From NCBI GenBank assembly GCA_021205585.1, contig JAJPXI010000207.1, forward strand, positions 1 to 52,525: a stretch of DNA of 52,525 nt, in the 5' to 3' direction. The position numbers and the translations under genes are program-made. Shown one piece after another: positions 2,840 through 39,361 of this stretch. Origin of the DNA: Oscillospiraceae bacterium. Its GTDB lineage: Bacteria > Bacillota > Clostridia > Oscillospirales > Oscillospiraceae. How positions within the stretch are numbered: position 1 is the first letter of the stretch; the number at the start of each line of letters is the position of its first letter. The notes beneath the pieces are model-generated. The model ran no database searches and was not told where the DNA came from. It saw only the letters and a list, made by a program, of their open reading frames with translations.

Positions 2840-3052
2840 GTGTATGACATTGATAAACAATTAAAGAGACAATCGGAGTTTAATAAGACAAATTATGACA
2901 AAATAGGTATAAATGTGTATAAAGGAAATAGAGAGAAATTAAAGGAACTTGCTTCCATCCATGGTCAATCTATGAATGATTACATTATACAAGCAATCGA
3001 GGAAAGAGTGACCAGGGATGGAGATGAATGGGAGAATAAGAAAATGATGTAA
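2840..3052 (+). CDS. Ribbon-helix-helix (CopG/Arc/antitoxin-like) DNA-binding protein, 70 aa
   Basis: GTG start 8 nt after GGGAGG. The segment IGINVYKGNREKLKELASIHGQSMNDYIIQAIEERV fits a beta-strand plus two helices, the RHH pattern. Confidence 0.65.
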   Translation: MYDIDKQLKRQSEFNKTNYDKIGINVYKGNREKLKELASIHGQSMNDYIIQAIEERVTRDGDEWENKKMM

Positions 3053-3321
3053 AGTCTGTGGACTATCGAACAGATGTTCGAGTGCTGGTGGAGGATCGGG
3101 AGTTTTGTTATTGAACGGAAGTTTTGGTTATCAAGTGATAACTTTTCAAAATTATGTAAACTATGTTCAGTTTTATACTTTAGCACGTTAAAGTGTTAAA
3201 GTATAGCTATGTGATAAATTCTCACTTCAGAACATAGGATTCACCAAAATACTCCATAACTGTTACCCAGGCCCTATTTTTGGTATTTTGATGGGGCTGT
3301 CTTCCAGAATATTGTATGTGT

Positions 3322-5897: not shown

Positions 5898-6090
5898 TAA
5901 CTGCTGCTTCGGAGATGTATGTTCTCTGGGCGGCGACTGCCCCTACTTTTCTCCGCTGGATGAGCTGGACTTTGAGGAGGACGTGCTGTTGTCCTCCGAG
6001 CGACTAAAGCGGGATTATGACGAGTTTTTGCTTGACTGGCTTGAATATATTGGTGAGTACCGGGATTCTAGTTGGCCTGACGATGAGTAA
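5866..6090 (+). CDS. Small Cys-rich acidic hypothetical protein
   Basis: The track ORF overlaps the end of the NTPase gene. It contains CDNCCFGDVCSLGGDCPYF followed by an acidic tail. The start codon is uncertain (TTG 5866, GTG 5878 or TTG 5887). Confidence 0.4.
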   Translation: MRQAVKKLRCDNCCFGDVCSLGGDCPYFSPLDELDFEEDVLLSSERLKRDYDEFLLDWLEYIGEYRDSSWPDDE

Positions 6091-6108
6091 AATTTTTTTT
6101 GGTTTGTC

Positions 6109-6130
6109 AACCTGCATTTATACCCGGATT
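6109..6130 (+). promoter_or_regulatory. Copy 2 of the conserved 22-nt element
   Basis: aacctgcatttatacccggatt follows a T8 run and lies about 90 nt upstream of CDS 6222. It is followed by two copies of tttgcgggcgac (about 6130-6141 and 6176-6187). Confidence 0.5.
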
Positions 6131-6221
6131 TTGCGGGCGACCGATTGTGAATAATGCCGTCGTGATTTGCGATGAATTTGCGGGCGACACAAATGTCGCT
6201 CTCAGGAAAGGATAGATTATT

Positions 6222-7229: not shown

Positions 7230-8021
7230 TTGGAAAATATTATTAAATTATTCAACGAGGAAGATTTTAAGGTGTTCGAGAATTCGGACTTTGGTAATTT
7301 ACGGACTGTGTATATTGATGATGAGCCGTGGTTTGTCGGTAAGGATGTGGCGACAGCGCTTGGGTATGCTGATACATTCGGGGCGTTAAAAAAGCACGTC
7401 GATGCCGAGGATAAGCAAAACTGCCAAAATGACAGTTTTGACAGTCCGAGGGGAATGACCGTCATCAACGAGTCCGGCTTGTACTCTCTTATCATGTCCA
7501 GCAAGCTGCCAACCGCGAAAGAGTTCAAGCGCTGGGTGACGAGCGAGGTTCTCCCAAGTGTCCGTAAGCACGGAGCGTATATCACCAGAGAGACACTGAA
7601 TCAAATCATGACTTCGCCGGATTTTGCGATCCAGCTGTTTACCCAAATTAAAGAGGAACAGGAGAAGAACGCCGAACTCCAGAAGGAGAACGACGCCCTG
7701 AAGACTGAGGTTGACGGTCTGGCGCACAACACGGCTGAGTGGGACAAGCGGGCGACGCTCGTAGCTTTGATGCGCAACTTGGCCCGCAACAGTCTTCATA
7801 GTGATTTCCGCTATGCGTTCAATATCCTTTATAAGGAACTGCGGTACGCAAAGAAAATCAGCCTGTCTCAGCGCGACGGTGATGGTTCCCTGATTGACCG
7901 GATTGAGGATGATGAGTGGGACGATGTTCTGGAAGTTGCTTGCTCTATCTGCAAGCGGCACGGTATTGATGTAGCTCGCGTAGTCAATGAGGTCAATGCC
8001 GCTGCTTGCCAGTGCGTTTGA
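7230..8021 (+). CDS. Phage antirepressor, Bro-N domain plus KilAC/ANT-like C-terminal domain
   Basis: TTG start after AAGGAGG. The N-terminus FGNLRTVYIDDEPWFVGKDVATALGY...ESGLYSLIMSSKLPTAKEFKRWVTSEVLPSVRKHGAY is a typical Bro-N signature. Confidence 0.85.
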   Translation: MENIIKLFNEEDFKVFENSDFGNLRTVYIDDEPWFVGKDVATALGYADTFGALKKHVDAEDKQNCQNDSFDSPRGMTVINESGLYSLIMSSKLPTAKEFKRWVTSEVLPSVRKHGAYITRETLNQIMTSPDFAIQLFTQIKEEQEKNAELQKENDALKTEVDGLAHNTAEWDKRATLVALMRNLARNSLHSDFRYAFNILYKELRYAKKISLSQRDGDGSLIDRIEDDEWDDVLEVACSICKRHGIDVARVVNEVNAAACQCV

Positions 8022-8028
8022 TTTTGGG

Positions 8029-8704
8029 GTGGTGCAAACGAGAATTCTTGTAGCTTGCGAGGAGAGCCAGGCCGTGACGGTAGAGCTTCGGCGGCTGGGT
8101 CACGAGGCGTACTCCTGTGATTTGGAGCCTTGCTCCGGCGGACATCCTGAGTGGCATATCCAGGTGGATGCGCTGGAGCTGTTGAAAATGCGGTGGGACA
8201 TGATTATCGCTTTTCCTCCGTGTACATATTTATCCAATGCTGGAGCGAGGCACTTATTCAAAGGCGGAGAGCTGAACATAGAGCGGTACCAAAAGGGGCT
8301 GGAGGCGAAGGAATTCTTTCTAAGTTTTCTTTACGCCGACTGCCCGAAAGTGGCCGTTGAGAATCCGGTGTCGAGCAGAATCTTTGAGATGCGGCCCGAA
8401 AGGGGCCGTGTCCAATCCGGGGTCGCCCCGAATCTTTTTGTCGCCCCCCCCCCCAACGCAGGAAATACAGCCGTGGCAGTTTGGCCATCCTGTGCAGAAA
8501 AAGACCAGGCTGTGGCTTCGCGGACTGCCGCCGCTGGAGCCGACCAATGTGATCGAATACAAATGCGGATGCCACGAGGCCGGAACGTGGTTCATGGTCG
8601 GAGGGAAAGACCGCCAGAAGAACCGAGCGAAGACATTCCTGGGCGTGGCAAAGGCTATGGCCGAACAGTGGGCTGGGGACGCAAATCAGAAAGAGGTGAT
8701 ATGA
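8029..8704 (+). pseudogene. Small C5-cytosine DNA methyltransferase-like gene with its frame broken at a C11 tract
   Basis: The N-terminal part (frame of ORF 7987..8742) has ILVACEESQ, FPPCTYLSNAG and VAVENP motifs. The C-terminal part (frame of ORF 8357..8704) has TQEIQPWQFGHPVQKKTRLWLRGLPPLEPT...RAKTFLGVAKAMAEQW. The frames change within cccccccccccc-type run 8444-8454 (11 C), and removing one C fuses them. The GTG 8029 start is uncertain. Confidence 0.7.
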
Positions 8705-8881
8705 ATATCCAAAAAATTAACGGCACAGCGGTACATATTTAAGATACGCAGCTCCAGACTGCGCAAGGCAAAATGGAATCTGACGCTGTCCATCGACGAG
8801 GCCAGAAAAAATGAGGAGGTCATCGCTCTGGCCGACAGCCAGGTACTGCGTTGGATTGACGAGCTGAACGGCCTGGAGGAC

Positions 8882-10330
8882 ATGGACGCCTGCGCTATTG
8901 AGTTAAAGCGAGAGATCCGGCAGATCCGCAGGGAGCCGAACAGCATCCAGAGCAAACGCCGTATCCGGCGGCTGTATGCCGAGCTGGACAACGTGCAGTA
9001 CAAGCCGGACTACCTGTGCGTGGTGATGGACCGGCCAAGCGACTACCGGCGGGCGGTAAAAGGTTTTTCGGTCAACGGTATCCGGTACAAGCGTCTGCTT
9101 GGTACGGCTGGCGGCATTAAGAACAGCACCATCGTTTTTGTCAGCGACCGGTTGGTGGACGAGCTTCGTCGGCGGATTGACGACGGGCGGGACATGGCTC
9201 AGGCGTTCGTCCCGGCGAAACTGGAAGCGTATAAAGCTCTGACGTGCAGTGCCTCTACCCCGGTGTCCGCACCTAACGGCGTTCTGGTTGTGAACGACTG
9301 CGAGACCAGCTTTGTGTCCGAGGTCATGTATCTGACCGACGAGGGCGACGGCGAACCGGCTATGGAATACCGGGACGCCCAGGAGATTACGCTGGATGCG
9401 TCGGACGGCTGCGGGATGATTCATCCCTCCCTCGCCCAGAGGTGGAGCGACGAGCTTGGGCTTGGCTATTTGGCCAGCGGGCTGAACACCAGGATGGCCT
9501 GGGAGAAGGGCGTTGTCTTCACCTTCGACTTTGTGGACTTCGCCGAGCGGGTGGCCGGGACGTATCTAGTCAAGGACGCTTGGGGCGATGAGGTGGATGT
9601 GCGAAATGTGGACTTGGTGCTGACCACATCCATGGTCAAGCTGTGGGACAGTTATGAGAGCTGCCAGGATTATCTGGAGAAGTCTTACGCAAACGGCTAT
9701 ACATTCGGGATCACCAAGGTCTGCCCGGAGGAGCTGGAGAATGAGCGGACGCTGAACTACCAGTTCATCCAGCCGTTCTCGCTTTACGACGACGATATTG
9801 AGGAGCTGATCGCCCCGACGATGAACGAGGTTAAGGATGTGCTCGGCGGAGACTGGCGCAAGACTGTGCTGTTTCTAAAAGGCTCCGGTCTGAAAGAAGA
9901 GCGGGCTGCCAGGTTCGAGGACGACATCGCCAAGGCGATTATGATCAACCCACAGATGGTGGACGACCCGTATGTCCAGAACGCGGTGTACCAGGCGATT
10001 AAGAAGCGGATCGACGAGGCGAAGATCGGTGTGCTGAAAGTCCACGGCAACTACTCCATAGTCTCCGGCGATTTGTATGCTCTGTGCCAGAGTATGTTCG
10101 GGCTGGAGGTCACTGGTCTGCTGGGAGCTGGTGAGGTATATAACCGATACTGGCTGGACTGCAAGGCAGAAAACCTTGTTTGCTTTCGAGCGCCCATGAG
10201 CTGTCCAAATAATATCCGGCTGGTGCATCCGTCGGCCAGCGATGAGGCCGCCTACTGGTTCCGTTATATGCGGACTTGCACTGTGTTCAATGGGTGGGAC
10301 ACGGCGATGGTGGCATTAAATGGGTTGGAT
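8882..10330 (+). CDS. Two-barrel (DPBB) DxDGD polymerase candidate, YonO / RdRP-like, exon 1
   Basis: Track ORF 8882..10333 ends ...CFRAPMSCPNNIRLVHPS...TAMVALNGLD, then TAA. The frame is open upstream to 8705 with no ATG/GTG/TTG, so the N-terminus is uncertain (see findings). Confidence 0.65.
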
Positions 10331-10628
10331 TAAATATCTATAGTCCCCCGCGTGGGTAACTGCGCGGTGAAAATTCGGTGAACCTGTAAATGCAGGGTGT
10401 GCGCACTGCGGTGCGTGCTAACGGTGAAACTCTCAGCTGAGACAACACCGTGCCAAGCCTTTGCGGAAACGCATTGGAAGGTGTAACGACTACAGCATAC
10501 GGCCTAAACGAGAGCATGGTTATGAAGCTGGTACTGCGCCGGTGAAACTCCGGCGCGGGAAGTGCCGAGCGCCCAGACTGCTGGGTGATGAGATAGTCTA
10601 TTCCCCATGGTGACATGGGGTAGTAAAG
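10331..10628 (+). mobile_element. Group I intron (298 nt, no ORF) inside the polymerase catalytic motif
   Basis: P1 is ggaT (10327-10330) with Gtcc (10343-10346), giving U.G at the splice site. P10 is tatg (10629-10632) with tata (10339-10342), directly adjacent. An R-like element ggtgtaacgactaca (10480-10494), an S-like gagatagtc (10590-10598) and several GNRA-type capped hairpins are present. The last nucleotide is G. The first intron codon is an in-frame TAA. Confidence 0.8.
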
Positions 10629-11738
10629 TATGACGGAGACCTGGTCATGCTGACCGACAACGAAGTCCTGGTGCGGAACTTCGAGCCGCTTCCCGCCCTA
10701 ATGTGCGTCCAGCGCAAGGCGGAAAAGAAAGTGCCGACGGAAGAAGACTTTGTAGAATCCAATCTTGCCAGCTTTGGCAACGAGATCGGACAGACGACAA
10801 ACCGGATCACAGCGATGTATGAGATCCAGTCCCGGTGCAGGAAGGGCGACCGGGAGTATGATGAGCTGGCGTACCGTATTCAATGCGGGCAGTTGTACCA
10901 GCAGAATTCAATCGACAAGGCGAAAGGGATTATCTGTAAGCCAATGCCGAAGACCTGGTACGACCGGCACGCGGTCAATGATATTGAAGACGGCAACACG
11001 CGGGAGTTCTACCGCAGCATTGTGGCGGACAAAAAGCCGTACTTCATGCGGTACGTCTACCCCGCCCTAATGAAGCAGTACAACACTTACATAAAGAACA
11101 CGGGCCGCAACGCCCAGCGGGAATTTCAGACGACCGTTGAGGAAATGAAGAGCGTTCCATACGGCGAGCTGAAGGATGACCAGAAGAAATTTCTCCATCG
11201 GTATGACTACGGGATGCCGGTCGGAGTTGGCGACTGCGTCATGAATCGGATTTGCCGCCGGTTCGAGCGGGAGTTCGATGGCCATATCAAAAAGCACAAT
11301 GCCTCCTCTCTATTCGACTACCGGATTCTGAAATCCGGCTGTGAGTATAGCGAGGATCAATTCCGCGAGATCAGACGGCTATACGACGAGTACGTCGCCC
11401 AGCTCAAGCGGTACAAGATATTCTCGGCCTACGAGAAGGTCGACGGAGATATTTCCTCCGCTGAGTTCCAGGTTATGAACGAGGCGTTCCGTGCCGCCTG
11501 CGTCACCACCTGTCCGAACGAGGCGACCCTGTGCGATACTCTGCTGGACTTGTGTTATACACGCAACGCGACCAAGCGGTTTGTATGGGAGATGTGTGGC
11601 TCGTCAATCATACAGAATTTACTAAATCGAAATGACAGGATGATCTCCGTGCCTGTCCGGTGCGAGGACGGAGAATTTACATACGCCGGAGAGCGGTATG
11701 CTGTGCGGCAGACAAAGCTGGACGAGGTGAGCGGTTGA
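10629..11738 (+). CDS. Two-barrel DxDGD polymerase candidate, exon 2
   Basis: It begins tat gac gga gac (YDGD) in the frame of track ORF 10647..11738. Ligation gives ...ALNGLD-YDGD-LVMLTDNE. Confidence 0.7.
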   Translation, partial: YDGDLVMLTDNEVLVRNFEPLPALMCVQRKAEKKVPTEEDFVESNLASFGNEIGQTTNRITAMYEIQSRCRKGDREYDELAYRIQCGQLYQQNSIDKAKGIICKPMPKTWYDRHAVNDIEDGNTREFYRSIVADKKPYFMRYVYPALMKQYNTYIKNTGRNAQREFQTTVEEMKSVPYGELKDDQKKFLHRYDYGMPVGVGDCVMNRICRRFEREFDGHIKKHNASSLFDYRILKSGCEYSEDQFREIRRLYDEYVAQLKRYKIFSAYEKVDGDISSAEFQVMNEAFRAACVTTCPNEATLCDTLLDLCYTRNATKRFVWEMCGSSIIQNLLNRNDRMISVPVRCEDGEFTYAGERYAVRQTKLDEVSG

Positions 11739-12529
11739 GCGTTGAGCTTCGAGAAAATGAATGGGCGGAACGGATGATCTCTCTGGGTGAGCTTGGCCGT
11801 AAGCCAGGTGTGACGGTGCGGCGTGTGGCGCGGTACTACCTGGATTGCGGCTATGACCGCCGAGCGGCGGAGCGGGCCGTTGAGGAGTTTGTACTCCGCT
11901 GTGCGCCGGACTCCGGCTCCCTCTATCGCTCCAGCTTGGCGGAGAATGGAGTAAAGTGGGCGATGAAGCAGGAGGCGGTTAATATTGACTGGATTGGAGT
12001 TTCGGCTGGGGAGCTTGAGAAGATTGGGCAGATAAGCAGAAGACCGGTGAAGCGTTTGGCCTTTACACTCCTCTGCCTTGCGAAATATGGCATGATACGC
12101 AATCCGAAAAGCAACTACTGGGTCAGCACTCCATGCAACGACATTATGCGCATGGCGAACATCAAGACTTCGACCAAGCGGCAGGACGCCATGTTCCAGG
12201 AGCTGAACAGTATGGGCTTGATTGAGTTCTCTGTGCGGGTGGACAACCTAAGCGTTCGAGTCTGCTTTGTGGACGACGGGGAGCCGGTACTCCAGGTACC
12301 AGACTTTCGGAATCTAGGTTATCGGTATCAGATGTATCTGGGCGAGCCGTATTTCGAGTGCGTGAACTGCGGGTTGGTCACGCCGCAGAACGATCCAAAG
12401 AATCAGCGCCGTCAGAAATACTGCCCGGACTGTGCGCTCAAGATTCGGACGAAGCAGCACGTTGAGGCGGTTTCCAGGTATGATGCGGCGAAGAGAAAGC
12501 GAAAGCAGGAAGTTCAGCCAGCTCCTTAA
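11735..12529 (+). CDS. Hypothetical protein with a C-terminal zinc ribbon (CVNCG...CPDC)
   Basis: In-frame TTG 11735 overlaps the upstream TGA (TTGA) and follows GAGGTG. The track ORF 11660..12529 starts further upstream, inside the previous gene. Confidence 0.6.
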   Translation: MSVELRENEWAERMISLGELGRKPGVTVRRVARYYLDCGYDRRAAERAVEEFVLRCAPDSGSLYRSSLAENGVKWAMKQEAVNIDWIGVSAGELEKIGQISRRPVKRLAFTLLCLAKYGMIRNPKSNYWVSTPCNDIMRMANIKTSTKRQDAMFQELNSMGLIEFSVRVDNLSVRVCFVDDGEPVLQVPDFRNLGYRYQMYLGEPYFECVNCGLVTPQNDPKNQRRQKYCPDCALKIRTKQHVEAVSRYDAAKRKRKQEVQPAP

Positions 12530-12556
12530 AATTGGGACAACTGACAATTTTAAGTA

Positions 12557-12600
12557 CCCCGAAAAACATTGAGTTCTCAATGTTTTTCGGGGCTTTGTTA
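12557..12600 (+). terminator. Rho-independent terminator ending the early block
   Basis: A 16-bp stem ccccgaaaaacattga (12557-12572) / tcaatgtttttcgggg (12577-12592) is followed by ctttgtt. Confidence 0.8.
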
Positions 12601-14859: not shown

Positions 14860-15885
14860 ATGCCGAGAAAAACAAAACACAACACCATCACATCGCCGGA
14901 GCTTCTGGCGAAGGTGAATCCGGAGAACACTGCATTGCTGAATGACTTTCTGGATTACCTACGGTCTACGGACAAAAGCGCGGGGACAATCGCCGCCTAC
15001 GAGAGCGATATTGAGATTGCCTTTGTCTGGTGCTTGCAGCACAACGAGAACCGGTTCTTTGTGGACTGGACGAAGCGCCAGATTGTGCAGTATCAGAACT
15101 GGCTGATCAATGAGAACGGGAATAGTCCGGCCAGAGTGCGGCGGCTGAAAGCGTCGCTGTCCAGCATGGCTAACTTCACGGAGTCAATTTTGGATGACGA
15201 GTTCCCGAACTTCCGCAACATTATCAATAAGGTGGAAAGCCCGATCAACCAGCCGGTGCGGGAGAAGACCATCTTCACCAGTTCGCAGATCGTCGGCCTG
15301 CTGGAGTACCTGACCGAGCGGGGTGCGTATGAGAAGGCTTGCGCTGTGGCGCTGGCGCTGTACTCCGGTCGGCGCAAGGCGGAGCTGCTGCGGTTCCGGG
15401 TATCGGACTTTACAGACGACCGGCTAGTCTGCGGCGGGAGTCTGTACAAGACCGGAAAGATCAAGACCAAGGGTCGCGGCGCACAGGGCAAGATGCTGGA
15501 GTGCTTTTGCCTGGCGAAGCAGTTCAAGCCGTATCTGGATCGCTGGCTTGAGTACCGGGAGCGGAACGGGATTGAGAGCGAGTGGCTCTTCCCTTCCAAG
15601 GAAGATCCGTCTGTACCCCTCGGCATTGCCACGCTGAACAGCTGGGCGATGTCCTTCAGCCGGTATCTCGATATGGATTTTTACTGGCATAGTCTGCGGC
15701 ATTTGTGTGTGTCCGACTTTAAGCGGGCTGGGATTCCTGATACCGTGATCCAGCAGTACATCGGCTGGGAGGACATCTCCATGGTGCCGGTGTACTCGGA
15801 TTTGCAGGCAGACGAACAGCTCAGTATGTATTTCAATGAGGACGGCATTGTCAAACCGGAACAAAAGGATTTGAGCGAAATCTGA
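14860..15885 (+). CDS. int: Tyrosine recombinase / phage integrase
   Basis: AAGGAGG SD. Has a SAM-like N-terminal domain, LALYSGRRKAELLRF (box I Arg), HSLRH (box II) and a C-terminal VPVYSD Tyr. Confidence 0.9.
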   Translation: MPRKTKHNTITSPELLAKVNPENTALLNDFLDYLRSTDKSAGTIAAYESDIEIAFVWCLQHNENRFFVDWTKRQIVQYQNWLINENGNSPARVRRLKASLSSMANFTESILDDEFPNFRNIINKVESPINQPVREKTIFTSSQIVGLLEYLTERGAYEKACAVALALYSGRRKAELLRFRVSDFTDDRLVCGGSLYKTGKIKTKGRGAQGKMLECFCLAKQFKPYLDRWLEYRERNGIESEWLFPSKEDPSVPLGIATLNSWAMSFSRYLDMDFYWHSLRHLCVSDFKRAGIPDTVIQQYIGWEDISMVPVYSDLQADEQLSMYFNEDGIVKPEQKDLSEI

Positions 15886-16421: not shown

Positions 16422-17413
16422 GTGGCCGTACTGTTCTCTGCTACCGGTGCGGAGCAGAGTACTCTAAATATAAAGGATTATTCCCGGTGAGTTACGCCAA
16501 TCTGCACAAGGGCGTTGGTTATCTTCCATGGTGCAAGAAATGCGTGGAGGATTTGTACAATACCTATCTGGCGCAGAGCAACGACGCGAAGGCGGCGGCG
16601 CGACAGGTGTGCCGGAAGCTGGACCTGTTCTGGAGCGATGCGGTATATGACCGGCTGGAGAAGACTGCTTCCCCGGCCAGCATTATGACTCAGTACATGA
16701 GCAGGCTGTGTTCCACATCTCTGGCAGGAAAGAGCTATGACGATACGCTCGCCGCAGAAGGGACACTATGGTCTTTCACAGTGCCGGATGTGCCGCTGGA
16801 GGAATCGGAGCCGGAGACAGAGGTGGAGGAAGAGCCGGAGATTGAAGTACCGGAGGAGATCCGCCAGTTCTGGGGGCCGGGGTACGACTCGGCTATGTAT
16901 CTGGAGATGGAGGAGCGGCGGCAGTATTGGCTCTCCCGGATGTCCGGGACGGGCGAGTTGGACATTGGCACTGAGGCGCTGATTCGCCAAATCTGTCCGC
17001 TGGAGATCGACATCAACCGGGAACGGGCGGCTGGGCATCTATCCGAGGCCGGGAAGCTGGCGGGCAATCTGAACAACCTGCTCGGCAGTATGAATCTAAA
17101 ACCGGTTCAGCAGAAGGACGATGTGGACGCCGACCTGGAGAAGACGCCGCTGGGCGTTGGCATTGCTAAGTGGGAATACTACAGGCCGCTGCCTCAGACG
17201 CCGGACAACATGAAAGACCAGAGTGGCCTTGTGAAAACAGTGTTGACATTTTTTACCGGACACCTGTGCAAGATGGCCGGTGTGAAGGGATTCCACAGTC
17301 GGATGTATGACGAAGCTATGGAGCGGCTGCGGGTCAAGCGGCCAGACATCGACGAGGAGGACGACCGGGAATTCCAGGCCAAGTTCTTCGATTCTGGAGA
17401 CGACCCAAAATGA
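16406..17413 (+). CDS. Putative terminase small subunit / zinc-ribbon DNA-binding protein
   Basis: It sits immediately upstream of terL and is translationally coupled to it (ATGA). It has an N-terminal CYRCG...CKKC and an acidic linker. The function is assigned by position only. Confidence 0.45.
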   Translation: MSLEIGGRTVLCYRCGAEYSKYKGLFPVSYANLHKGVGYLPWCKKCVEDLYNTYLAQSNDAKAAARQVCRKLDLFWSDAVYDRLEKTASPASIMTQYMSRLCSTSLAGKSYDDTLAAEGTLWSFTVPDVPLEESEPETEVEEEPEIEVPEEIRQFWGPGYDSAMYLEMEERRQYWLSRMSGTGELDIGTEALIRQICPLEIDINRERAAGHLSEAGKLAGNLNNLLGSMNLKPVQQKDDVDADLEKTPLGVGIAKWEYYRPLPQTPDNMKDQSGLVKTVLTFFTGHLCKMAGVKGFHSRMYDEAMERLRVKRPDIDEEDDREFQAKFFDSGDDPK

Positions 17414-19248
17414 GCGCCAAGAAGAAGACGGCCGAGAGCAACTCTCCTGCTGAGAAGACGCGCCGGGAGCGGGTCATTGAAGGCATGGCGATTTGGGCGA
17501 GCTATTACCGAGAGAACATCGACGCATTTCTGGACGACTATCTCGGACTGACTTTCCTAAAGCCATTTCAAAAAGCTCTGCTCGCCATGATGAACCGGGA
17601 GAGTGAATTTGTCTGGATCGCCGCCCGTGGTATGGGCAAGACCTTTCTAATTGCGATATTTGTCTGCGTGCGGGCTATCCTCTACCCGGGTTCGCTGATT
17701 GTTATTACAGCTGGCAACCGGGGGCAGAGCATCAACGTGCTGGAAAAAGTGCAGACGATTCTGATTCCAAAGTCTCCGGCTTTAAAGAATGAGATCGACC
17801 TGAACGCCACAAAGTTCGGCGGACAGGACGCAAAGATTATGTTTAAGAATACCAGCGTAATCAAGGTGGTCACGGCCAACGACGGCGCACGCTCCAACCG
17901 TGCGAACATCCTGATCGTGGATGAGTTTCGCCAGGTCAAGAAGGACACGGTTGACACCGTTCTGAAGAAGTTCCTGACCTCCAGGCGGATGCCGCAATAT
18001 ATAGAGCTGACAGAGGAAGAGCGGGCTGCTGAGTACGCTAAAGAGCGCAACAAGCAGTTCTTCCTGAGTTCGGCATACTTCAAGGATTCCTGGGCTTATC
18101 GGAAAACCATTGATACAGCCAACGCCATGATCGCCGACCCGGACAACGTGTTCTGTGTGGGTCTCCCCTACCAGCTCTCCATCCAAGAGGGGCTGTTGTT
18201 TGAGGAAGATTTGCAGGGCGATATGCGCGAGTCTGATTTCAGTGAGATCAAATGGAGCATGGAGATGGGCGCTGAGTTCTTCGGTGTTGGGGACGGGTCG
18301 TTCTTCGACTTTGACTCCATATCCAAGAACCGCCACATCAAGTACCCCATGCTGCCGGACAAATACGCTGCGCTGGTCGGTTATGACAAGCGGGTGAAAA
18401 TTCCGGCGAAGCAGCCAGGCGAAGTGCGGATTCTGTCTGCCGACATCGCACTGATGCGGAGCGGGAAGAACAAGAATGATGCCACAGCAATCTTTATCAA
18501 TCAGATGCTGCCTACCAAGGCCAAGCGGTATTCCAACAACATTGTATATACCGAGGTCTGCGAGGGTCTGCGGACTGACGACCAGGCGCTGGTGATTCGC
18601 AAGCTGTTCGATGAGTTTAATTGCGACTATCTGGTGATCGACGCTCAGGGCGTTGGGCTTGGCTGCTATGACGCGCTGGCCCGGGACATGACAGACCTGG
18701 AGACGGGCGAGGTCTACCCTGCCTTGTCGTGCTGCAACAACCAGGAGATGGCGGCCAGGTGTTCTGTGCCTGGTGCGCCGAAGGTAATCTGGTCGATTAA
18801 GGCCAGCGCCCAGTTCAACTCGGACTGTGCGTATATGTTGCGGGAGGCGTTCCGCAACGGGCGGATTCGTCTGCTGTGCAACGAGTTCGATGCGCACAGC
18901 GAATTGTTACCGGAGATTAAGGCTTACACCTCTCTAAGTGAAGAGAACAAAGTGAAGGTGGAGCTTCCTTATATAAACACAACACTTCTCGTCAACGAGC
19001 TGATTCAGCTCCAGCACGAGGAGGTCGGCAACCGGGTCAAGGTGTTTGAGAAGGTCGGGATGCGCAAGGACCGGTACTCCAGCCTTGCCTACAACTATTA
19101 CGTTGCGACTCAGGTTGCGAACAAACTCGGTCGGAGACAGCGGGGCAGCTCTTCCGACGCGAGCTTTTTTATTATCAAGCCGCCGAGCTATTCAGAGGGA
19201 AGGAAGGTGAGTGCGGGTGGCAGAAGAAACGAACCGGGCTGGTACTGA
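17410..19248 (+). CDS. terL: Terminase large subunit
   Basis: Walker A AARGMGKTF, Walker B ILIVDEF and a C-terminal nuclease-sized domain. 612 aa, and its position fits. Confidence 0.9.
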   Translation: MSAKKKTAESNSPAEKTRRERVIEGMAIWASYYRENIDAFLDDYLGLTFLKPFQKALLAMMNRESEFVWIAARGMGKTFLIAIFVCVRAILYPGSLIVITAGNRGQSINVLEKVQTILIPKSPALKNEIDLNATKFGGQDAKIMFKNTSVIKVVTANDGARSNRANILIVDEFRQVKKDTVDTVLKKFLTSRRMPQYIELTEEERAAEYAKERNKQFFLSSAYFKDSWAYRKTIDTANAMIADPDNVFCVGLPYQLSIQEGLLFEEDLQGDMRESDFSEIKWSMEMGAEFFGVGDGSFFDFDSISKNRHIKYPMLPDKYAALVGYDKRVKIPAKQPGEVRILSADIALMRSGKNKNDATAIFINQMLPTKAKRYSNNIVYTEVCEGLRTDDQALVIRKLFDEFNCDYLVIDAQGVGLGCYDALARDMTDLETGEVYPALSCCNNQEMAARCSVPGAPKVIWSIKASAQFNSDCAYMLREAFRNGRIRLLCNEFDAHSELLPEIKAYTSLSEENKVKVELPYINTTLLVNELIQLQHEEVGNRVKVFEKVGMRKDRYSSLAYNYYVATQVANKLGRRQRGSSSDASFFIIKPPSYSEGRKVSAGGRRNEPGWY

Positions 19249-32552: not shown

Positions 32553-32882
32553 CAACATAAATGTGCCCAGCAAACAGAAATGTTTGTACAGCCTCCTTGT
32601 AAAACAAAGGCTGCTCAATAACTATATAAGTCAAAACGCTGTGGGAAGCGCAAGACTTAGGAAAGACTGTGAATACAGAATCCTCAGAGACTGCGGGGTG
32701 TATGTGGCAACACATATGCTGAAGTTATTCTCCCTGCCTATTTTGGCGAGAGTGATATACAGTCCGATCTCACGATATAATCCCACATAATATGAAACGT
32801 GAGAGCTGGCCGGAAACGACCAGCCGCCATGCGAAATACATGGTCAGTAGTCGTGCTAATTCCGACGAAAGTAACAGTTATG
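32553..32882 (+). mobile_element. Group I-like intron 1b in the tape-measure gene (about 330 nt); 3' boundary uncertain
   Basis: P1 is gggT (32549-32552) with Gccc (32565-32568), giving U.G. A GAAA-capped hairpin caaaca-gaaa-tgtttg is present. P7-like pairing is gactgt (32665-32670) with acagtc (32759-32764), inside the S-like gatatacagtcc. 3' hairpins are ctcacg/cgtgag, gctgg..ccagc and ccatg..catgg. In-frame G-terminated 3' sites exist at 32831, 32864, 32867 and 32882. Protein consensus favours 32882 (RIRG|ATTELDE). Confidence 0.5.
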
Positions 32883-35800
32883 GCCACTACAGAATTAGAC
32901 GAGCTTGGCGAGTCCTCCGAGGATTGTGCTGACGGCATTTCTAAATATCGGGAAGAAGTCAAGGCTCTAACCGGCGTTGACATCATGATTGACGACAACA
33001 CCTACAGAGATGTCTATGACATTTTCGTTGATATTGCGAATGTTTGGAATGACCTGAGTGATACAGCACAGGCTCGTGTGTCCGAAATTTTGGGCGGCAC
33101 AAGGCAGCTCTCTGGTGTGTCCTCTACTATTACAAATATTGCGGACGCTATAGGCGCATATGAGAGCGCAATGGATTCCGCCGGGGCCGCAACTGAGGCC
33201 AACGACATCTACATGGAGACGACCACCGCTCATATTGCACAGCTGAACGCGGCGACGCAGGAGCTTGGCAGTGACCTGTTCAATCAAGATATGTTCAAGA
33301 CCTTTTTTGACGGTGCGACAAAAGCTATAGAAGCTATTGATGTTCTTGTTAGCCACATGGGAATGATCGGTACCGGAGGACTTGCCGGGCTTGCCGCAGG
33401 TTTCAAAAGTATATTTTCATCCGCCAGCAATTTTTCTAAACAATTGAGTGACGTTTCAAGCATAGCTAATAGCATCGGGACTGCTACTACATGGGCAGCT
33501 AATTATGCAGATGCTATCGAAGGATGCAACGACGCGACAAAGAACTTGCTGTTGTCAAGCGGCGGGTTGAGTACGCAACAGCAGACGCTTGTTCAAAATA
33601 TTTTAAAGGCGCGGACGGGCATATCCAACCTTACGGCCGCAGAGGTAATGGACGAGCTTACAAAGCAGGGGCTAATCACCGCCGAAGAGACAGAAACGGT
33701 GATGAAAGAACTCAACATTACTAAAACCCAAAAGCTAACAGAGTCTCAGCTTACTGCGGCGTATGCTTCCGGAACTCTAACAGAATCGCAGTACAATACC
33801 GCGATGGCGTTAGTCGCCGAGTCAACGGCGGCGGCCAAAGCCACAACTTCGACGACATCTTTTTCGACCGCGATTAAAGGCGCAATGGCGACTAACCCCG
33901 TCGGCTGGATTATGTTGATTGTCAGCACTTTGGTATCGCTATACAGTATTGTTAAAAATAATACGGATTTATTCAGTACCACGTCTGAAAGGTTAGAGAA
34001 GCTACAGTCCGATCTGGAAGAGCTGGAGGAGACCATTGACTCCGCCGCATCCTCTTTTAAAGAATTGCGGGAGACGTTAGAACTCGATTCTGACGCAACT
34101 GTCATTGACGAATTCGCGGAGCTTGCCAAAGGTGTTAATCAGTTTGGTGAAAATGTTGACCTAACAGAAGATGAGTATGAGAGATTTACGGAACTGCAAA
34201 GCACACTTGCCGAGTTATTCCCGTCCATAGACAACGGGTTAAACTCAAATGGAGAGCAGATGCTGGCACTGTCCTACTCTTCCGATACATTGGCCGAGTC
34301 GTTATATGCGTTGGCGGATGCGGAGCTTGCGGCGTATCAGCAAGAAATAGCTGATACCATGCCAGACCTTGTAAAAGACATCGCAAAAGAGACTAAGATA
34401 TACCAGAACCAATTGTCCGATTTGGAAGATCAGTATACCGTCTTGACCGCACTAAGTAGCGGGTATGCCAATTATTCAGACGTTGGTCGAATGATGCCAT
34501 ATCAAGATGTTGCTGACTTATTAGAATCGTATGGATTGTCGGCCTCTCAAGATATTTATGGGATGTCTGTTGATCTGAATACAGACGAGGCTCTGGCTGC
34601 ATATGAAAGTGCTTTGGCTACGCTCGAGCAGGAAATAAAGCAGGTAAACGACGAGGTAGCAGATGCTTGGACTGATTTAAACCCAGTTATTACATCGTGG
34701 CTTTCTACCGATTATACCTATAATGAGTTAAGTGACGAGATGCAGGATCTTCTCGCCTCTCTGATTGGAAATATTGATTTTTCGGAGCTTGGCTATGGCA
34801 CAGCAGATGACATCCAATCCTATATCAAGACCAATTTCTTAGTGCCAATTTATAACGCAAGTGATGAAGTACAGGAGGCTTGGAGCGATCTAATAGCGGT
34901 CGACACCTCTGATACCTCTTATTCCAAATTATACAACACAATTCACGAGTATGCTAATGTTGTAGCAGATGGCATTGGTCAAGACGTAGAGGATATTGTA
35001 TCTTCTCTGTACGGCGATACACTGGAAACGTACAATGATAAGATCATCGCTCTGACGGAGGAGTTCCAGGAGAGTTCGTTCTATGCGACCTCTGCGGCGG
35101 AGGATGCCGCTGAGAGTATGACCAGAGTATATAGCTTTTGGCTTAACAATCTGGAGGTTGGGGACCTCGACCTGGTGTATACTCTGTCCCTGCAAGAGGA
35201 CACCAGTGGCTGGACGTTACGGGATTGGCAGGATAATCTTGAGAAACTTCGTGAGTACACTGACGCGACCAACTTCACCATCGACATCGACGCGGAGACC
35301 GAGGGGCTTGAGGCTGTCAACACCGCTCTGGCTGAGACCGCATCGGCCACTGGTCTAACATCAGATTCTATTGAAACGCTCAAAGAGCGGTATCAGGACT
35401 TGGAGGACTTTGACGCAGACGCTCTGTTCGAGAACACGTCCTATGGTGTGCGGCTGAATACAACTGAGCTGAAGAAGCTGGAAGATGAGTATGAGGCCGT
35501 TATCAAAACCGGCTTTGATGAGAAGCTCGAAGAGCTGGCGGATGAGTATAACGAGGCCAAGAGCGAATTGTCCAGCTATCTGGGAGATGTGGACGCCTAC
35601 AACGAAAAGCTGTCCGAGCTGGACGCAATCGAGGCTCAGATTGAAGAGACTGAGATTCTCGCCTCCCAGTATGGAGCGCTGACCTCTGCGTATAACGAGT
35701 GGCAGAACGCCATGAATACCGACAACCAGCGGGATACCTATGAGTCCATCGGTGCAAGCTATGAGGATATGCAGGACATCCTGAACGCCGGGTGGTACAA

Positions 35801-37045
35801 TGATGATTCTTTACAGTCATACCTCGATCTGTTGCTCGGCGAGGAAAATCGCACTGGTGATGCCCTGAAGGATTTTGCTAAGCTCAGTGAGACCATCGCT
35901 GGGACAACGCACTCCATCATGGATTACTGGGCGTATGACGAGGACGGCAATCTGCTGTCCAACGGTCTGGTGGATTTTCTGGAAGATGTGCGCCAAGTCA
36001 TGGGCGAGGACTATGTTTGGCTTGACGAAGAAGGCAGTTATGTATTCGATCTGACGGGCGATAAGATACAGGAAGTCGCTGACCGGTTCGGTATGGGCAC
36101 GGAAGCCATTGAATATTTCATCACAGCCTTGGGGGATGTCAGCGGGACGGTTGCTCTTGAGGATATTAGTGATACGCTTGACCTAATTACGACCAGAGCT
36201 GAGGATGCGATTGCGACACTACAGGGCATTGAAGGGCTGACGGACTTTGAGTTCGATCTGAACACTTCGGACGTGGACGAACTCCAAGATGACCTGGCGG
36301 AAGCACAGCGGATTTACGACTCTATGTTGGATGAAAACGGCATTCTCAATTTGGATATAGAGGGTGCGGACGATGCATATGCTTTACCTTACGCTATCAA
36401 TCTTCAGATTCAGCAGATCGAGCAACCGGCCATTATGACCGTTGACACGTCGTCGTTCAAAGAGGGGTACGAGATTGTTGCGGACGCCGCCGCGAAGATT
36501 ATAGAATATGGCGAATTGGTAAGTCAGCTAAAGCTCTACGAATCTCTTGGTAAGGATACAACCGATATAGTCACGGATCTACAGGAGGTTTCCGCAGAGC
36601 TTTCTAATATCTCTAAAGACGCATATATCTCTCTCGGTCTTGATACAGAAACCATAGAGGAGATAAAGAGCATCACTTCTGAATGTTCTGTAGAGCTTGA
36701 TCAGGATAGCGTTGATGCCGTGATGGATATACTTGGCTCCATAGACGTTGACGATCTACCGCTTGAGTGCGATACCGATGCAGTCGAGGAAGCGTTTGAA
36801 TATTATGAGGAATATCAGTTTGGCGACAAAACTATCGTTGTGACGGTATCCGGCGGGGCGCTCAAAGACCTGCGGGTGATACAAAGCGTTGTAGACGATC
36901 TGTCCGGAGCAAGCATTGCGATAGGCACAGCATCGAATGCAGACGGTACTGCCCACGCCACTGGTACGGCCAAAGCCAGTGGGGATTGGAGCGTCGGGTC
37001 GAGCGGAGAGTCTCTGGGAGGAGAACTCGGACAAGAACTCGTGGT
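32883..37045 (+). CDS. Tail tape-measure protein, exon 3 (main body)
   Basis: In the frame of track ORF 32799..37067. ATTELDELGESSEDCADGISKYREEVKALTGVDIMIDDNTY...ILGGTRQ continues the TMP core, followed by long helical repeats. It ends ...GGELGQELV(V). Confidence 0.8.
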
Positions 37046-37369
37046 TTTGCGAAGCCACGCCGCTTAGTGATAAGCGGTTCATAATTTATTGAATTGCTGG
37101 AACACCCTTAGAGCCTTACCACCAAAACGGAGTAGCGAATAGCTACAAACGGCAATGGTTTGAAAACGGTAGGGATTGGGCAATCAGCAGCCAAGCCGCG
37201 AATAGCGGAAGGTTCAACGACTATCCCGCAAGGGAGTAGGGCCGCAAGCGATTGGCAGCTCGAAGCAGTAAATTACCTATTATATAGGTAAAAGATATAG
37301 TCTGAACTCATGTGAGAACATGAGGGGCGATGCCCTGTCCGGTGTAGCGAACCGGGCAAAACATAATTG
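37046..37369 (+). mobile_element. Group I intron 2 in the tape-measure gene (324 nt, ORF-less)
   Basis: P1 is cgtggT (37040-37045) with Gccacg (37054-37059). P10 is cgcaa (37371-37375) with ttgcg (37047-37051). P2 is cgctta-gtga-taagcg. P ttgaattgctgg at 37089-37100, Q gggcaatcagcagccaagc at 37178-37196, R ggttcaacgactatc at 37210-37224, S aaaagatatagtc at 37290-37302. It ends ...ataattG. The boundary is good to within a few nt. Confidence 0.85.
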
Positions 37370-37959
37370 ACGCAACGGCAGATGGTTCACCATCGGGGAC
37401 GACGCGGCAGAGTTCTTCCACCACGAACCAAATGACATTATATTCAACGCAGACCAGACTGAGCAGATCTTCAAGTACGGTAAGATAGTAAGTGGTCGCA
37501 AGAGAGGAACATCTTTCCTTACTGGCACTGCGTTTACTGGCGGCTCCGGCAGCGGAGTCAGCCCCTCTACGACCGCCACCGCCTCCACTGCCAAGACCAG
37601 CTCTTCTTCGAGCAGTTCATCCAGCAGTTCTTCTGACTCCGACGACGAGAATACAGAAGAGGTCATCGACTGGATTGAGATCGCAATCGACCGGATTGAG
37701 CGGGCGATCGACAATCTGGCTACCATAGCGGAGAGCGCGTATCACACGCTTGCCGAGCGGCTGAGCGCGACGAAGGACGAAATCTCCACAATCACAGAGG
37801 AGATTCAAGTTCAGCAGGCGGGCTATGACCGGTATATGCAAGAGGCCAACTCTGTCGGGTTGAGCAGTGACCTTGCGGCTAAGGTCATGGACGGCACCAT
37901 CGACATTGAGACGCTGGATGAGGATACCGCAGATTTAGTAAGCCAATTTCAAGAATGGT
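37370..37959 (+). CDS. Tail tape-measure protein, exon 4 (absent from the ORF track because it has no start codon)
   Basis: An open frame from 37371 encodes RNGRWFTIGDDAAEFFHHEPNDIIFNADQTEQIFKYG...poly-Ser...EEVIDWIEIAIDRIERAIDNL...DLVSQFQEW. A TGA lies immediately upstream at 37368-37370. Confidence 0.8.
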
Positions 37960-39361
37960 ATATTTTCATGCCGCTGTACCTGGAACTGGTACGGCTTTTC
38001 TACTGAATTGCTGGGACGCCCCAAAGGTGACTAAGCCAAAACGTGAGAATGAAAGATGTCTGAGCGTGACGGCGGCGAAAGCAGAAAAAATTAGGCACAT
38101 AGGATATGGCGAAAGCCTAAGTCCTTTACAACGGGCAATCAGCAGCCAAGCTCCGAATAGGAGAAGGTTCACAGACTATCGCTGAAATGCGAGTAGGGCC
38201 GCAAGCGATTGGCGGCTCGAAGTGGTAGATTACTTATAATTGCAATTTAGAAGCCAATGATAGGAGGTGAAATATGTTTGATGAAAATCAATTAGTTATG
38301 GTACGTTGGAATAATACAAATAAGGAATGGTACGAGTTGATGGGTTACAAATATACAAAACGATATGACCCCTTTTATGTAAAAGCAAAGCATCTTTCCT
38401 TACATTCTTCGGCGCAGATAGTTGTTGTGTGTGATTATTGTGGAAACGAATATAAAACACAGTATGCCTTAATTACAAACGGACGTCTACTTCTTAATAA
38501 GGATGCGTGCTCTAAGTGCGCGCCCACGAAGGCCAACGAGCTTAGATGGGCGAGAATGTCAAGAAAAAAGATGGGTGAAGCTCGGCGTATTTGTGATGAG
38601 TGCGGATATGAACTAATCTCTTCTGAAGATGATTATGCCGGAGCCACGGCCGCCATTCAATTTCGATGCCCGATACACGGTATCCAGACTATGAATCTTG
38701 ACAATCTTTTGAGAGGGCATAGGTGCAGAGATTGTGGCTATGATAGCGTTAGGGTAGCCTTAAAGCACAGTGGCGATTATGTCAAACAGGAAATCGAGAA
38801 GGTAAATGGCAATATACTACTAAACCCAGAAGATTATAAAGGGGCGTTTATCAACAATCTGCGTATTAGATGTAGGTGCGGAAATGTATTTACAACGGCG
38901 TTTTCCAGCTATACTAAGGCAGGGATAAATCGTTGTCATACATGTTCGTGCAAAGAGAGCAGTGGGGAATTAAAAATCAGGGAGTTTTTGGAGTCAAAAA
39001 ATATCACTTTCGTTCAGGAGAAAAGATTCAAAGATTGTTGTGATAAAAAGCCACTCCCGTTTGATTTTTATTTGCCAGACTATAACACTATTATTGAGTT
39101 TGATGGTCAGCATCATTATATGCCGGTACACGGAGAAGATCGCTACCTCGTGACAATAGCTCACGACCAAATAAAGAACCGATATTGTTGTGCCCACGAC
39201 ATTCATCTATTGCGTATTCCATATTGGGAAGGTAAACGTATGGAGGAAATTATCGCAAACGATCTAAAAATTGCAATATGAGTAAAAGATATAGTCGAAT
39301 CTCATGGGAAACCCATGAGGGTAAAAGCCCGTCGGGTGTAGCGCCCCGGCGAAATAAAATG
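37960..39361 (+). mobile_element. Group I intron 3 in the tape-measure gene (1402 nt) carrying a homing-endonuclease ORF
   Basis: P1 is tggT (37956-37959) with Gccg (37970-37973). P10 is atgaaaa (39362-39368) with ttttcat (37963-37969), 7 bp and contiguous with P1. The core is nearly identical to intron 2: P at 38003-38015, Q at 38133-38151, R ggttcacagactatc at 38166-38180, S aaaagatatagtc at 39284-39296. The last nucleotide is G at 39361. Confidence 0.9.
38274..39281 (+). CDS. Intron-encoded homing endonuclease candidate: zinc-ribbon repeats plus a C-terminal PD-(D/E)XK / Vsr-EDxHD-like nuclease
   Basis: ATG follows TAGGAGGTGA inside intron 3. It has three CxxC...CxxC-type modules, then GELKIREFLESKNITFVQEKRF...LPFDFYLPDYNTIIEFDGQHHY...DQIKNRYC...HLLRIPYWE. 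AT content is higher than in the flanks. Confidence 0.75.
   Translation: MFDENQLVMVRWNNTNKEWYELMGYKYTKRYDPFYVKAKHLSLHSSAQIVVVCDYCGNEYKTQYALITNGRLLLNKDACSKCAPTKANELRWARMSRKKMGEARRICDECGYELISSEDDYAGATAAIQFRCPIHGIQTMNLDNLLRGHRCRDCGYDSVRVALKHSGDYVKQEIEKVNGNILLNPEDYKGAFINNLRIRCRCGNVFTTAFSSYTKAGINRCHTCSCKESSGELKIREFLESKNITFVQEKRFKDCCDKKPLPFDFYLPDYNTIIEFDGQHHYMPVHGEDRYLVTIAHDQIKNRYCCAHDIHLLRIPYWEGKRMEEIIANDLKIAI

Follow-up and report, generated by a model that had tools for sequence, protein, structure and literature searches.

We analysed a 52,525-nt stretch of contig JAJPXI010000207.1 from an Oscillospiraceae bacterium (hereafter the window, to which all coordinates refer), in which positions 8705-11738 of the + strand very probably hold one gene for a single-chain two-barrel polymerase, split by a group I intron (subgroup IA) that lacks an open reading frame (ORF) and is predicted to be self-splicing. 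Exon 1 (8705..10330) encodes residues 1-542 of this YonO-like RNA polymerase (RNAP) and ends with the GAT codon of the first catalytic aspartate, D542. The 298-nt intron (10331..10628) follows, and exon 2 (10629..11738) encodes residues 543-911, opening with TAT GAC GGA GAC (Y543 D544 G545 D546) and closing with the TGA stop codon at 11736-38. Upstream, a Shine-Dalgarno sequence (GAGGTGA, 8693..8699) lies 5 nt before an ATA codon at 8705 that we take as the start. Two ORFs mark the gene in the unspliced sequence: ORF 8882-10333, which closes at TAA 10331-10333, and ORF 10647-11738, which is in the frame needed for a junction 10330|10629. An earlier reading of this DNA made from its letters (the sequence-only reading) had set these ORFs 298 nt apart; their actual spacing is 313 nt, and 298 nt is the length of the intron itself.

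Removal of 10331-10628 fuses ...ALNGLD to YDGDLVMLTDNE and restores the G-L-D-Y-D-G-D sequence, just as had been proposed. The ligated-exon junction of the spliced message would be GGGTTGGAT|TATGACGGAGAC, and the spliced sequence across it reads ...FNGWDTAMVALNGLD|YDGDLVMLTDNEVLV, which corresponds to ...NGLD|YDGDLVML, or D542-Y-D544-G-D546 of the 911-aa product. When about 5.8 billion proteins were searched with the spliced product, 4,450 relatives were found, the best of them 858-942 aa long with 64-67% identity and 97-100% query coverage. Uninterrupted homologues carry ...WDTAAAALNGMD(Y/F)DGDLVMLTDN... with no gap or indel at the junction, and because the spliced product is colinear with these intronless proteins, which number in the hundreds (66% identity, 99-100% coverage), the junction is exact to the nucleotide. 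This confirmed that the insert separates the codon of the first aspartate from the remainder of the metal-binding loop D-x-D-G-D. The loop is invariant in 76 homologues and is present in the window gene only after splicing, and both exons are open and keep all invariant residues.

The same comparison bears on whether the locus is instead a split gene, whose two ORFs, with products of 483 or 542 aa and, from ATG 10647, of 363 aa, would form a two-subunit polymerase without any splicing, as seen in certain phages and cyanobacteria with split beta/beta' subunits. The second ORF does have its own ATG, and the two halves are kept apart both as the separate families phrog_25339 and phrog_35857 and in the annotation of Clostridium phage c-st. 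However, separate translation would drop Y543-V548 and with them two of the three invariant aspartates, and mainly for this reason we regard a split gene as exceedingly improbable. In addition, the majority of homologues are uninterrupted, and a covarying group I ribozyme fills the spacer, its ends restoring the motif exactly.

The interrupted-gene reading was also consistent with the identity of the encoded protein. The RNA-dependent RNA polymerase (RdRP) family of Pfam, PF05183, matched exon 1 alone with 34.7 bits (residues 56-449), while the spliced 852-aa form that starts at ATG 8882 reached 49.8 bits against a cut-off of 23.8 (E 3e-13, residues 56-549), with an alignment that crosses the junction to residue 549. 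By BLASTP the product matched SPbeta YonO (839 aa) with E 6.6e-38 and 26% identity, residues 119-606 aligning with YonO 132-603 and the aspartate triad (DNDGD in YonO) being spanned. Among deposited phages, tblastn found SPbeta yonO (E 4e-31) and its relatives in phi3T and the Goe phages, Clostridium phage c-st, six Enterocloster phages and others; a megablast of 7900-12600 against the same kind of records gave no match. When 1.84 billion cluster representatives were searched exhaustively, 2,006 clusters were found at E <= 1e-3, of which 571 were at E <= 1e-30. In the PHROGs collection, phrog_25339 matches exon 1 and phrog_35857 exon 2, and a contiguous family, phrog_8308, spans both.

An alignment of 76 diverse full-length members (A3) had twenty invariant positions: K172, Y176, D234, G235, K268, G269, K312, Y352, Q353, R495, P497, D542, D544, D546, G596, N600, R625, I637, D638 and K641. 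Two-barrel polymerases share an R-x-P motif, an aspartate triad, and an aspartate and two lysines in the other barrel (PMC2919709), and this expected set is among the invariant positions (R495 and P497; the triad; D234 with K268 and K312, and also K172). These residues would map one-to-one onto those of Rpb1 and Rpb2. A profile of the 76 sequences matched only RDR2 and QDE-1 chains in the Protein Data Bank (PDB), and phmmer with the single spliced protein found no match among PDB sequences. The AlphaFold2 model of the spliced product was of high confidence, with a predicted local distance difference test score (pLDDT) of 92.6 and a predicted template modelling score of 0.89. Foldseek placed this model closest to maize and Arabidopsis RDR2 (6e-18) and to QDE-1 (~1e-17), all within E 6e-18 to 1e-15 and with template modelling scores of 0.45-0.49 over ~900 columns; next came the phage single-chain RNAP 8f72 (E 2e-6), and bacterial beta' subunits matched weakly, at E ~1e-2. 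Sequence and model together thus support the assignment of the spliced 911-aa protein to the YonO/cellular-RdRP type of two-barrel (double-psi beta-barrel) polymerases. This type had been suggested from the catalytic motif, with a spliced size of about 850-910 aa that fits both the 852-aa form and the 911 aa counted from ATA 8705.

Whether such an enzyme copies DNA or RNA is a separate matter. With the intron correctly identified, the protein could still be an RdRP or a primer-extending enzyme and not a promoter-specific DNA-dependent transcriptase; the top structural matches are eukaryotic RdRPs, the Pfam family carries that name, and the homologues in PMBT24 and TR-TP1 are annotated as RdRP. 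These annotation names, however, come from the Pfam label and not from assays, and the element that carries the gene is a double-stranded DNA tailed phage that would need late-gene transcription. Moreover YonO, alone among bacterial and phage members in having been characterised, transcribes the SPbeta late operon as a processive RNAP that depends strictly on DNA, and its 3D>3N aspartate-triad mutant is dead (PMC5467207). We therefore consider an RNA-templated or primer-extending enzyme unlikely and favour a DNA-dependent RNAP.

The gene probably starts at 8705 and not at ATG 8882, the start of the first ORF in the sequence-only reading. Homologues have ~59 N-terminal residues beyond what ATG 8882 allows, and in the window these are encoded in frame from 8705 (ISKKLTAQRYIFKIRSSRLRK...), directly after an in-frame TGA (8702-8704) that ends the upstream gene. 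No ATG, GTG or TTG is usable at this N-terminus. In 76 related loci the same layout of Shine-Dalgarno sequence, spacer and start was seen, with the codon at the position equivalent to 8705 sitting 5-6 nt past GAGGTGA. That codon was CTG in 49 loci, ATA in 18, ATT in 6, ATC in 2 and ATG in a single one (c-st), and in 50 of the 76 loci the stretch from the upstream in-frame stop to this codon offers no canonical start. The 59 aa before ATG 8882 are conserved in homologues and were modelled with pLDDT values of 89-97. Since the position after the Shine-Dalgarno sequence is conserved, most loci lack a canonical start and the N-terminus is confidently modelled, we infer that the polymerase gene starts at ATA 8705 and that its product is 911 aa long. 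Initiation at a non-AUG codon appears from these alignments to be a trait of the YonO-like polymerase family, and it would explain why gene callers give products of 858-862 aa or of 911-914 aa for the same gene. We also considered a 2-bp deletion or sequencing error at 8705, given the missing canonical start and an ATG at 8701 in another frame, and rejected it because the 50 related loci likewise have no canonical start there.

The structure of the insert was then built up from a covariance-model match, a minimum free energy fold and a comparison of five introns, the window copy and its homologues from the related loci L198, L085, L084 and L142 (64, 63, 43 and 30% protein identity; loci that need telling apart are given L numbers). 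Homologous introns at the same motif were found in relatives of 64%, 63%, 43%, 30% and 26% protein identity. The P1 hairpin (10327..10346) has 6 bp, in which exon GGAU and intron UA pair with the internal guide UAGUCC and the 5' splice site follows U10330. The expected wobble pair at the splice site, U10330·G10343, is invariant in the five-intron alignment, and the neighbouring pair 10331/10342 covaries between UA and AU. P10 has 4 bp (10629-32 UAUG with 10339-42 UAUA) and is contiguous with P1, so that both features put forward in support of the splice sites were recovered, and the terminal intron base is G10628. Between these ends lie P2 (10348-55/10360-67, capped by a GNRA tetraloop), P3 (10374-78/10565-69, complementary and covarying segments), two hairpins between P3 and P4 (10383-96 and 10399-418), P4 (10421-26/10446-51), P5 (10431-34/10439-42), P6 and P6a (10452-82), P7 (GACUA/UAGUC, 10488-92/10594-98), P7.1 (10493-96/10527-30), P7.2 (10534-42/10550-58), P8 (10571-76/10581-86) and P9 (10603-09/10614-20, again with a GNRA cap), all on the + strand. 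P7.1 and P7.2 show compensatory changes, and their position between P7 and the 3' strand of P3 is a hallmark of subgroup IA.

Over 84 pairs in 15 helices, 94.4% of the cells in the five-intron alignment were paired, compared with 32-40% when the 3' partners were slid. In 46 of the 84 pairs both sides had changed, and the observed values were reached by none of 500 shuffles; P7 is invariant across the five introns and hence uninformative in this respect. Folding the window intron alone by minimum free energy recovered the P2-P9 helices with z = -4.7 relative to shuffled sequences. In a local search of 651 nt, the Rfam group I model RF00028 matched 10342-10620 over the full model (1-253) with 44.3 bits and E 5e-10. 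The insert was confirmed in this way as a group I intron of subgroup IA, with the covariance model, the covariation and the exact exon junction in agreement at sequence level.

Several points nevertheless weigh against the picture of a working, intron-split polymerase gene. The RF00028 match is there locally, but its 44.3 bits fall short of the curated 50-bit gathering score, and a default scan of the window at that score lists only an intron in the tape-measure gene (37036-37324) and not this one. Rfam also aligns P3 differently from the covariation-supported helix, at ~10412-20 with 10561-70. P1 contains only 4 exon base pairs. The start codon is the non-canonical ATA, and both the expression level and the true N-terminus are judged from conservation. 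Splicing is deduced from the DNA sequence, and template specificity (DNA or RNA) and target genes are extrapolated from a relative of 26% identity. As to P3, we rejected the Rfam placement in favour of 10374-78/10565-69, which covaries; the two extra P3-P4 hairpins probably explain both the lowered RF00028 score and the misplaced P3.

Some of these points could be combined into a decayed intron in a dead gene, that is, a non-splicing ribozyme within a polymerase pseudogene of a defective prophage. A sub-gathering Rfam score, an intron without endonuclease, a frameshifted methylase gene next door and a non-canonical start codon are all what one would look for in that case. Against this, the exons are open with every invariant residue, the core helices are all intact and show compensatory changes, the non-AUG start is found family-wide and hence is no lesion, and the remaining window encodes a complete-looking phage. 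Decay is thus very unlikely, and an intact gene with an intron that splices itself accounts best for the locus.

If the intron splices as predicted, the host polymerase would transcribe the precursor, and the intron would fold and bind a guanosine in P7. This guanosine would attack after U10330, and the freed exon end, still held by the guide, would in turn attack after G10628, so that two transesterifications excise the intron and ligate the exons. Only the spliced mRNA would give active enzyme with the full aspartate triad; unspliced mRNA would be translated up to TAA 10331, giving a 542-aa fragment with one of the three catalytic aspartates. Like SPbeta YonO, the enzyme would then act as a DNA-dependent RNAP on phage genes, probably late ones, and may cooperate with the translationally coupled Zn-ribbon protein of 11735-12529. 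The intron itself would be a selfish element that persists through codons that cannot change and through pairing of its GUC guide to a GAU aspartate codon. A regulatory role is possible but unsupported, in which the efficiency of splicing would control how much phage polymerase is made and hence when the switch to phage-directed transcription occurs.

We next considered how such introns are distributed in the family. Relatives have, besides the catalytic motif, a second insertion site at the invariant ID|KxKG sequence, which in the window corresponds to codons I637-D638 of the QQNxID-KxKG motif (10911..10916, + strand; D638 is GAC) and is uninterrupted. The best 80 relatives in IMG/VR were uninterrupted across the segment that holds both sites, as were 76 of 80 loci in bacterial genomes, both lists being biased towards contiguous matches. 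Of the best 150 cluster representatives, 12 stop at query residues 542-547 and 10 at 633-642, and 2 begin at 549; judging by these end points they are exon fragments, which would make up roughly one in seven of the best representatives. A scan of genome contigs with window-specific peptides returned no relative; patterns drawn from a closer alignment (A4) worked, and A3 was too variable for this use.

Altogether, introns were placed at three sites. The window's own site, D|xDGD, is also occupied in L198, L084, L142 and L158. The site 6 nt downstream, DxD|GD, is occupied in L085, phage c-st, Enterocloster phage CB457P1 and L284, and ID|KxKG in L085, L087, L088, L142, L237, L253, L279 and L284. 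In the coordinates of the respective loci, the introns lie at 5919-6212 and ~6490-6799 in L085, at 2974-3290 in c-st (L086, AP008983.1), at 1745-2275 and ~2558-3037 in L087 and at ~2088-3179 in L088, which is phage CB457P2. The related introns of YonO-like genes mostly lack an ORF, and most combine a 5' exon end GAU with the guide GUC; an exception is the ID|KxKG intron of L142, with exon end AU(U) and guide GUAGC, whose junction cannot be placed exactly. By blastn the nearest relative of the window intron is that of L085 (74% over 261 nt), which sits at the 6-nt-shifted DxD|GD site, whereas more distant introns share the window's D|xDGD position.

Because the GUC guide and GAU sites are shared, L085 has its intron at the shifted site and the distant introns sit at the window's site, the three positions could have been left by natural relocation of an intron between GAU sites, directed by its guide RNA and achieved by reverse splicing or by sliding. 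We put this forward as a doubtful but not negligible interpretation. To our knowledge, circumstantial evidence for guide-directed relocation of group I introns is otherwise scarce. As a separate observation on codon use, the unoccupied candidate sites of the window (10632-10640 and 10914-10916) use GAC for D544, D546 and D638, the occupied site being GAT; over 81 intronless alleles, GAC made up 57-85% at the candidate-site codons versus 54% over all aspartate codons of the segment, which is a weak trend only.

Intron mobility of a more usual kind, homing, had been read from the insertion at highly conserved codons. The intron is sporadically present and absent among otherwise similar alleles, and some relatives bear endonucleases: the second-site intron of CB457P2 contains an ORF of 250 aa whose product has a weak AP2 domain like that of HNH-AP2 homing endonucleases. 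This polymorphism and the endonuclease-bearing relatives are consistent with homing, but the 298-nt window intron has no meaningful ORF and no endonuclease gene, and its own homing would be deduced from these relatives. The locus is also less exceptional than the sequence-only reading suggests. Clostridia prophages often carry YonO-like polymerases, and copies split by introns occur frequently, published phage genomes included.

The window as a whole is a tailed double-stranded DNA phage of Clostridia, with a tyrosine integrase (14860-15885), a large terminase (17410-19248), a Bro-N/Ant protein (7230-8021) and a tape-measure protein whose first exon encodes 1,422 aa. Its relatives are prophages and contigs binned with Oscillospiraceae, Acutalibacteraceae, Ruminococcus and Lachnospiraceae, and prophages in isolates of Frisingicoccus, Lacrimispora and Anaerocolumna. 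The same intron-bearing allele is found in two Logan assemblies from independent sequencing runs (SRR15221348/50 study). Directly downstream of the polymerase gene lies a 264-aa ORF (11735..12529, + strand), also seen in gene calls on Logan contigs, whose TTG start overlaps the polymerase stop (TTGA) and whose product, a member of phrog_30716, ends in a C-terminal Zn ribbon. By BLASTP it matched CST177 of phage c-st (E 1e-22), and CST177 in turn matches YonO residues 799-820 (E 9e-4). From these similarities, the product of this ORF may be a separate polymerase subunit.

On the upstream side, the DNA methyltransferase gene (7987-8704) has a frameshift at a C11 tract (8444-8454). Dropping one C there joins the methylase frames and raises the phrog_757 match from 101.9 to 177.4 bits (residues 17-236), and the frameshift could stem either from a sequencing error in the homopolymer or from phase variation of the methylase through strand slippage. 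In the tape-measure gene (32799-39500), the group I intron at 37036-37324 matches RF00028 with 77.5 bits, after which the frame resumes (…NGRWFTIGDD…) to ~37985. A second intron extends from ~37940 to ~39320, with 42.3 bits for its 5' part and 22.1 bits for its 3' part, and holds an HNH homing endonuclease ORF (38274-39281; phrog_559, E 1e-57). With the polymerase intron, these two give a phage with at least three group I introns. The sequence-only reading had in addition credited the phage with a sigma-like protein; the sole candidate found was a 340-aa ORF on the - strand (1734-2759), whose C-terminal helix-turn-helix has at best sub-threshold matches to Sigma70_r4 (E 3.5e-3) and HTH_23.

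A subgroup IA intron placed in catalytic codons of an essential phage enzyme is a familiar kind of finding, and the family of the host gene is both known and common. The new element, on the sequence comparisons above, lies in the recurrent and unannotated presence of introns in YonO-like polymerase genes, at three GAU-linked insertion sites. The YonO-type single-chain RNAP would join a short list of phage enzymes with self-splicing introns in their catalytic codons, and such polymerases attract interest because they may be relics of the ancestor of all cellular RNA polymerases. In practical terms, gene models can be corrected and the full-length 911-aa enzyme could be expressed from spliced cDNA. 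The introns offer a set of compact ~290-nt ribozymes with natural sequence variation, and the three GAU-linked sites a testable case for the movement of ORF-less group I introns.

Of the known systems, SPbeta YonO (Forrest et al. 2017, PMC5467207) is the closest characterised one. Both enzymes are single chains with two double-psi beta-barrels, DxDGD (DNDGD at 535 in YonO), R-x-P and the Asp/Lys residues of the first barrel, and both are encoded by tailed phages or prophages of Firmicutes. Unlike the window gene, yonO has no intron. YonO is also shorter (839 versus 911 aa), the C-terminal ~300 aa of the window protein being a different helical region, and its C-terminal Zn-ribbon module is fused, whereas in the window it is a separate coupled ORF (11735-12529), as with CST177 of c-st. 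Finally, the window gene has a non-AUG start codon. QDE-1 and RDR2 (PDB 2J7N, 7Y7P, 7W82, 7EU0) share the Pfam family PF05183 and the fold of the whole chain, and the catalytic loop of QDE-1 is likewise DYDGD (PMC2919709). Identity is only 13-15%, however, and the window enzyme is phage-encoded, probably DNA-templated and without the eukaryotic accessory domains.

Interrupted polymerase genes have been met before. In the Zeta group of crAss-like phages, RNAP ORFs are disrupted within DxDxD, and stop codons, frameshifts or unknown mechanisms were left open as the cause (Yutin et al. 2021, PMC7886860). There, too, an RdRP-like two-barrel RNAP gene is interrupted inside the catalytic aspartate motif, but in the window the interruption is a defined group I intron with an exact junction. 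More closely related are CST179/CST178/CST177 of phage c-st and the Enterocloster phages CB457P1/P2 and CB473P1-3 (OP172753-OP172757), which belong to the same family (40-42% identity) and have related introns at DxD|GD and/or ID|KxKG, the former insertion lying 6 nt downstream of that in the window. The c-st spacer scores only 25.4 bits on RF00028, but its P1, P7, P9 and 3' end align with those of the family; in the 2005 annotation the three pieces were called 'YonO homolog N-ter only', 'hypothetical' and 'YonO homolog C-ter only'. The c-st and Enterocloster phage records annotate the exons as separate hypothetical proteins, with no intron, and we found no description of introns in YonO-like polymerase genes in the literature on these genes, on PMBT24, in a jumbo-phage survey or in a review of group I introns.

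Group I introns in essential phage genes are well documented, for example in T4 td, nrdB and nrdD, the DNA polymerase genes of SPO1 and T7-like phages, SPbeta bnrdE and bnrdF, and Twort orf142 (PMC3984707), and the beta-like RNAP subunit gp273/274 of phage 201phi2-1 is split by a mobile intron (PMC2919709). Like these, the intron described here is an IA ribozyme with P7.1 and P7.2, sits at catalytic or invariant codons and occurs sporadically among close relatives, some members of the group having homing endonuclease ORFs. It differs from them in that the window copy has no endonuclease ORF and has two extra P3-P4 hairpins, and in that related introns occupy three sites of one gene, two of them only 6 nt apart.

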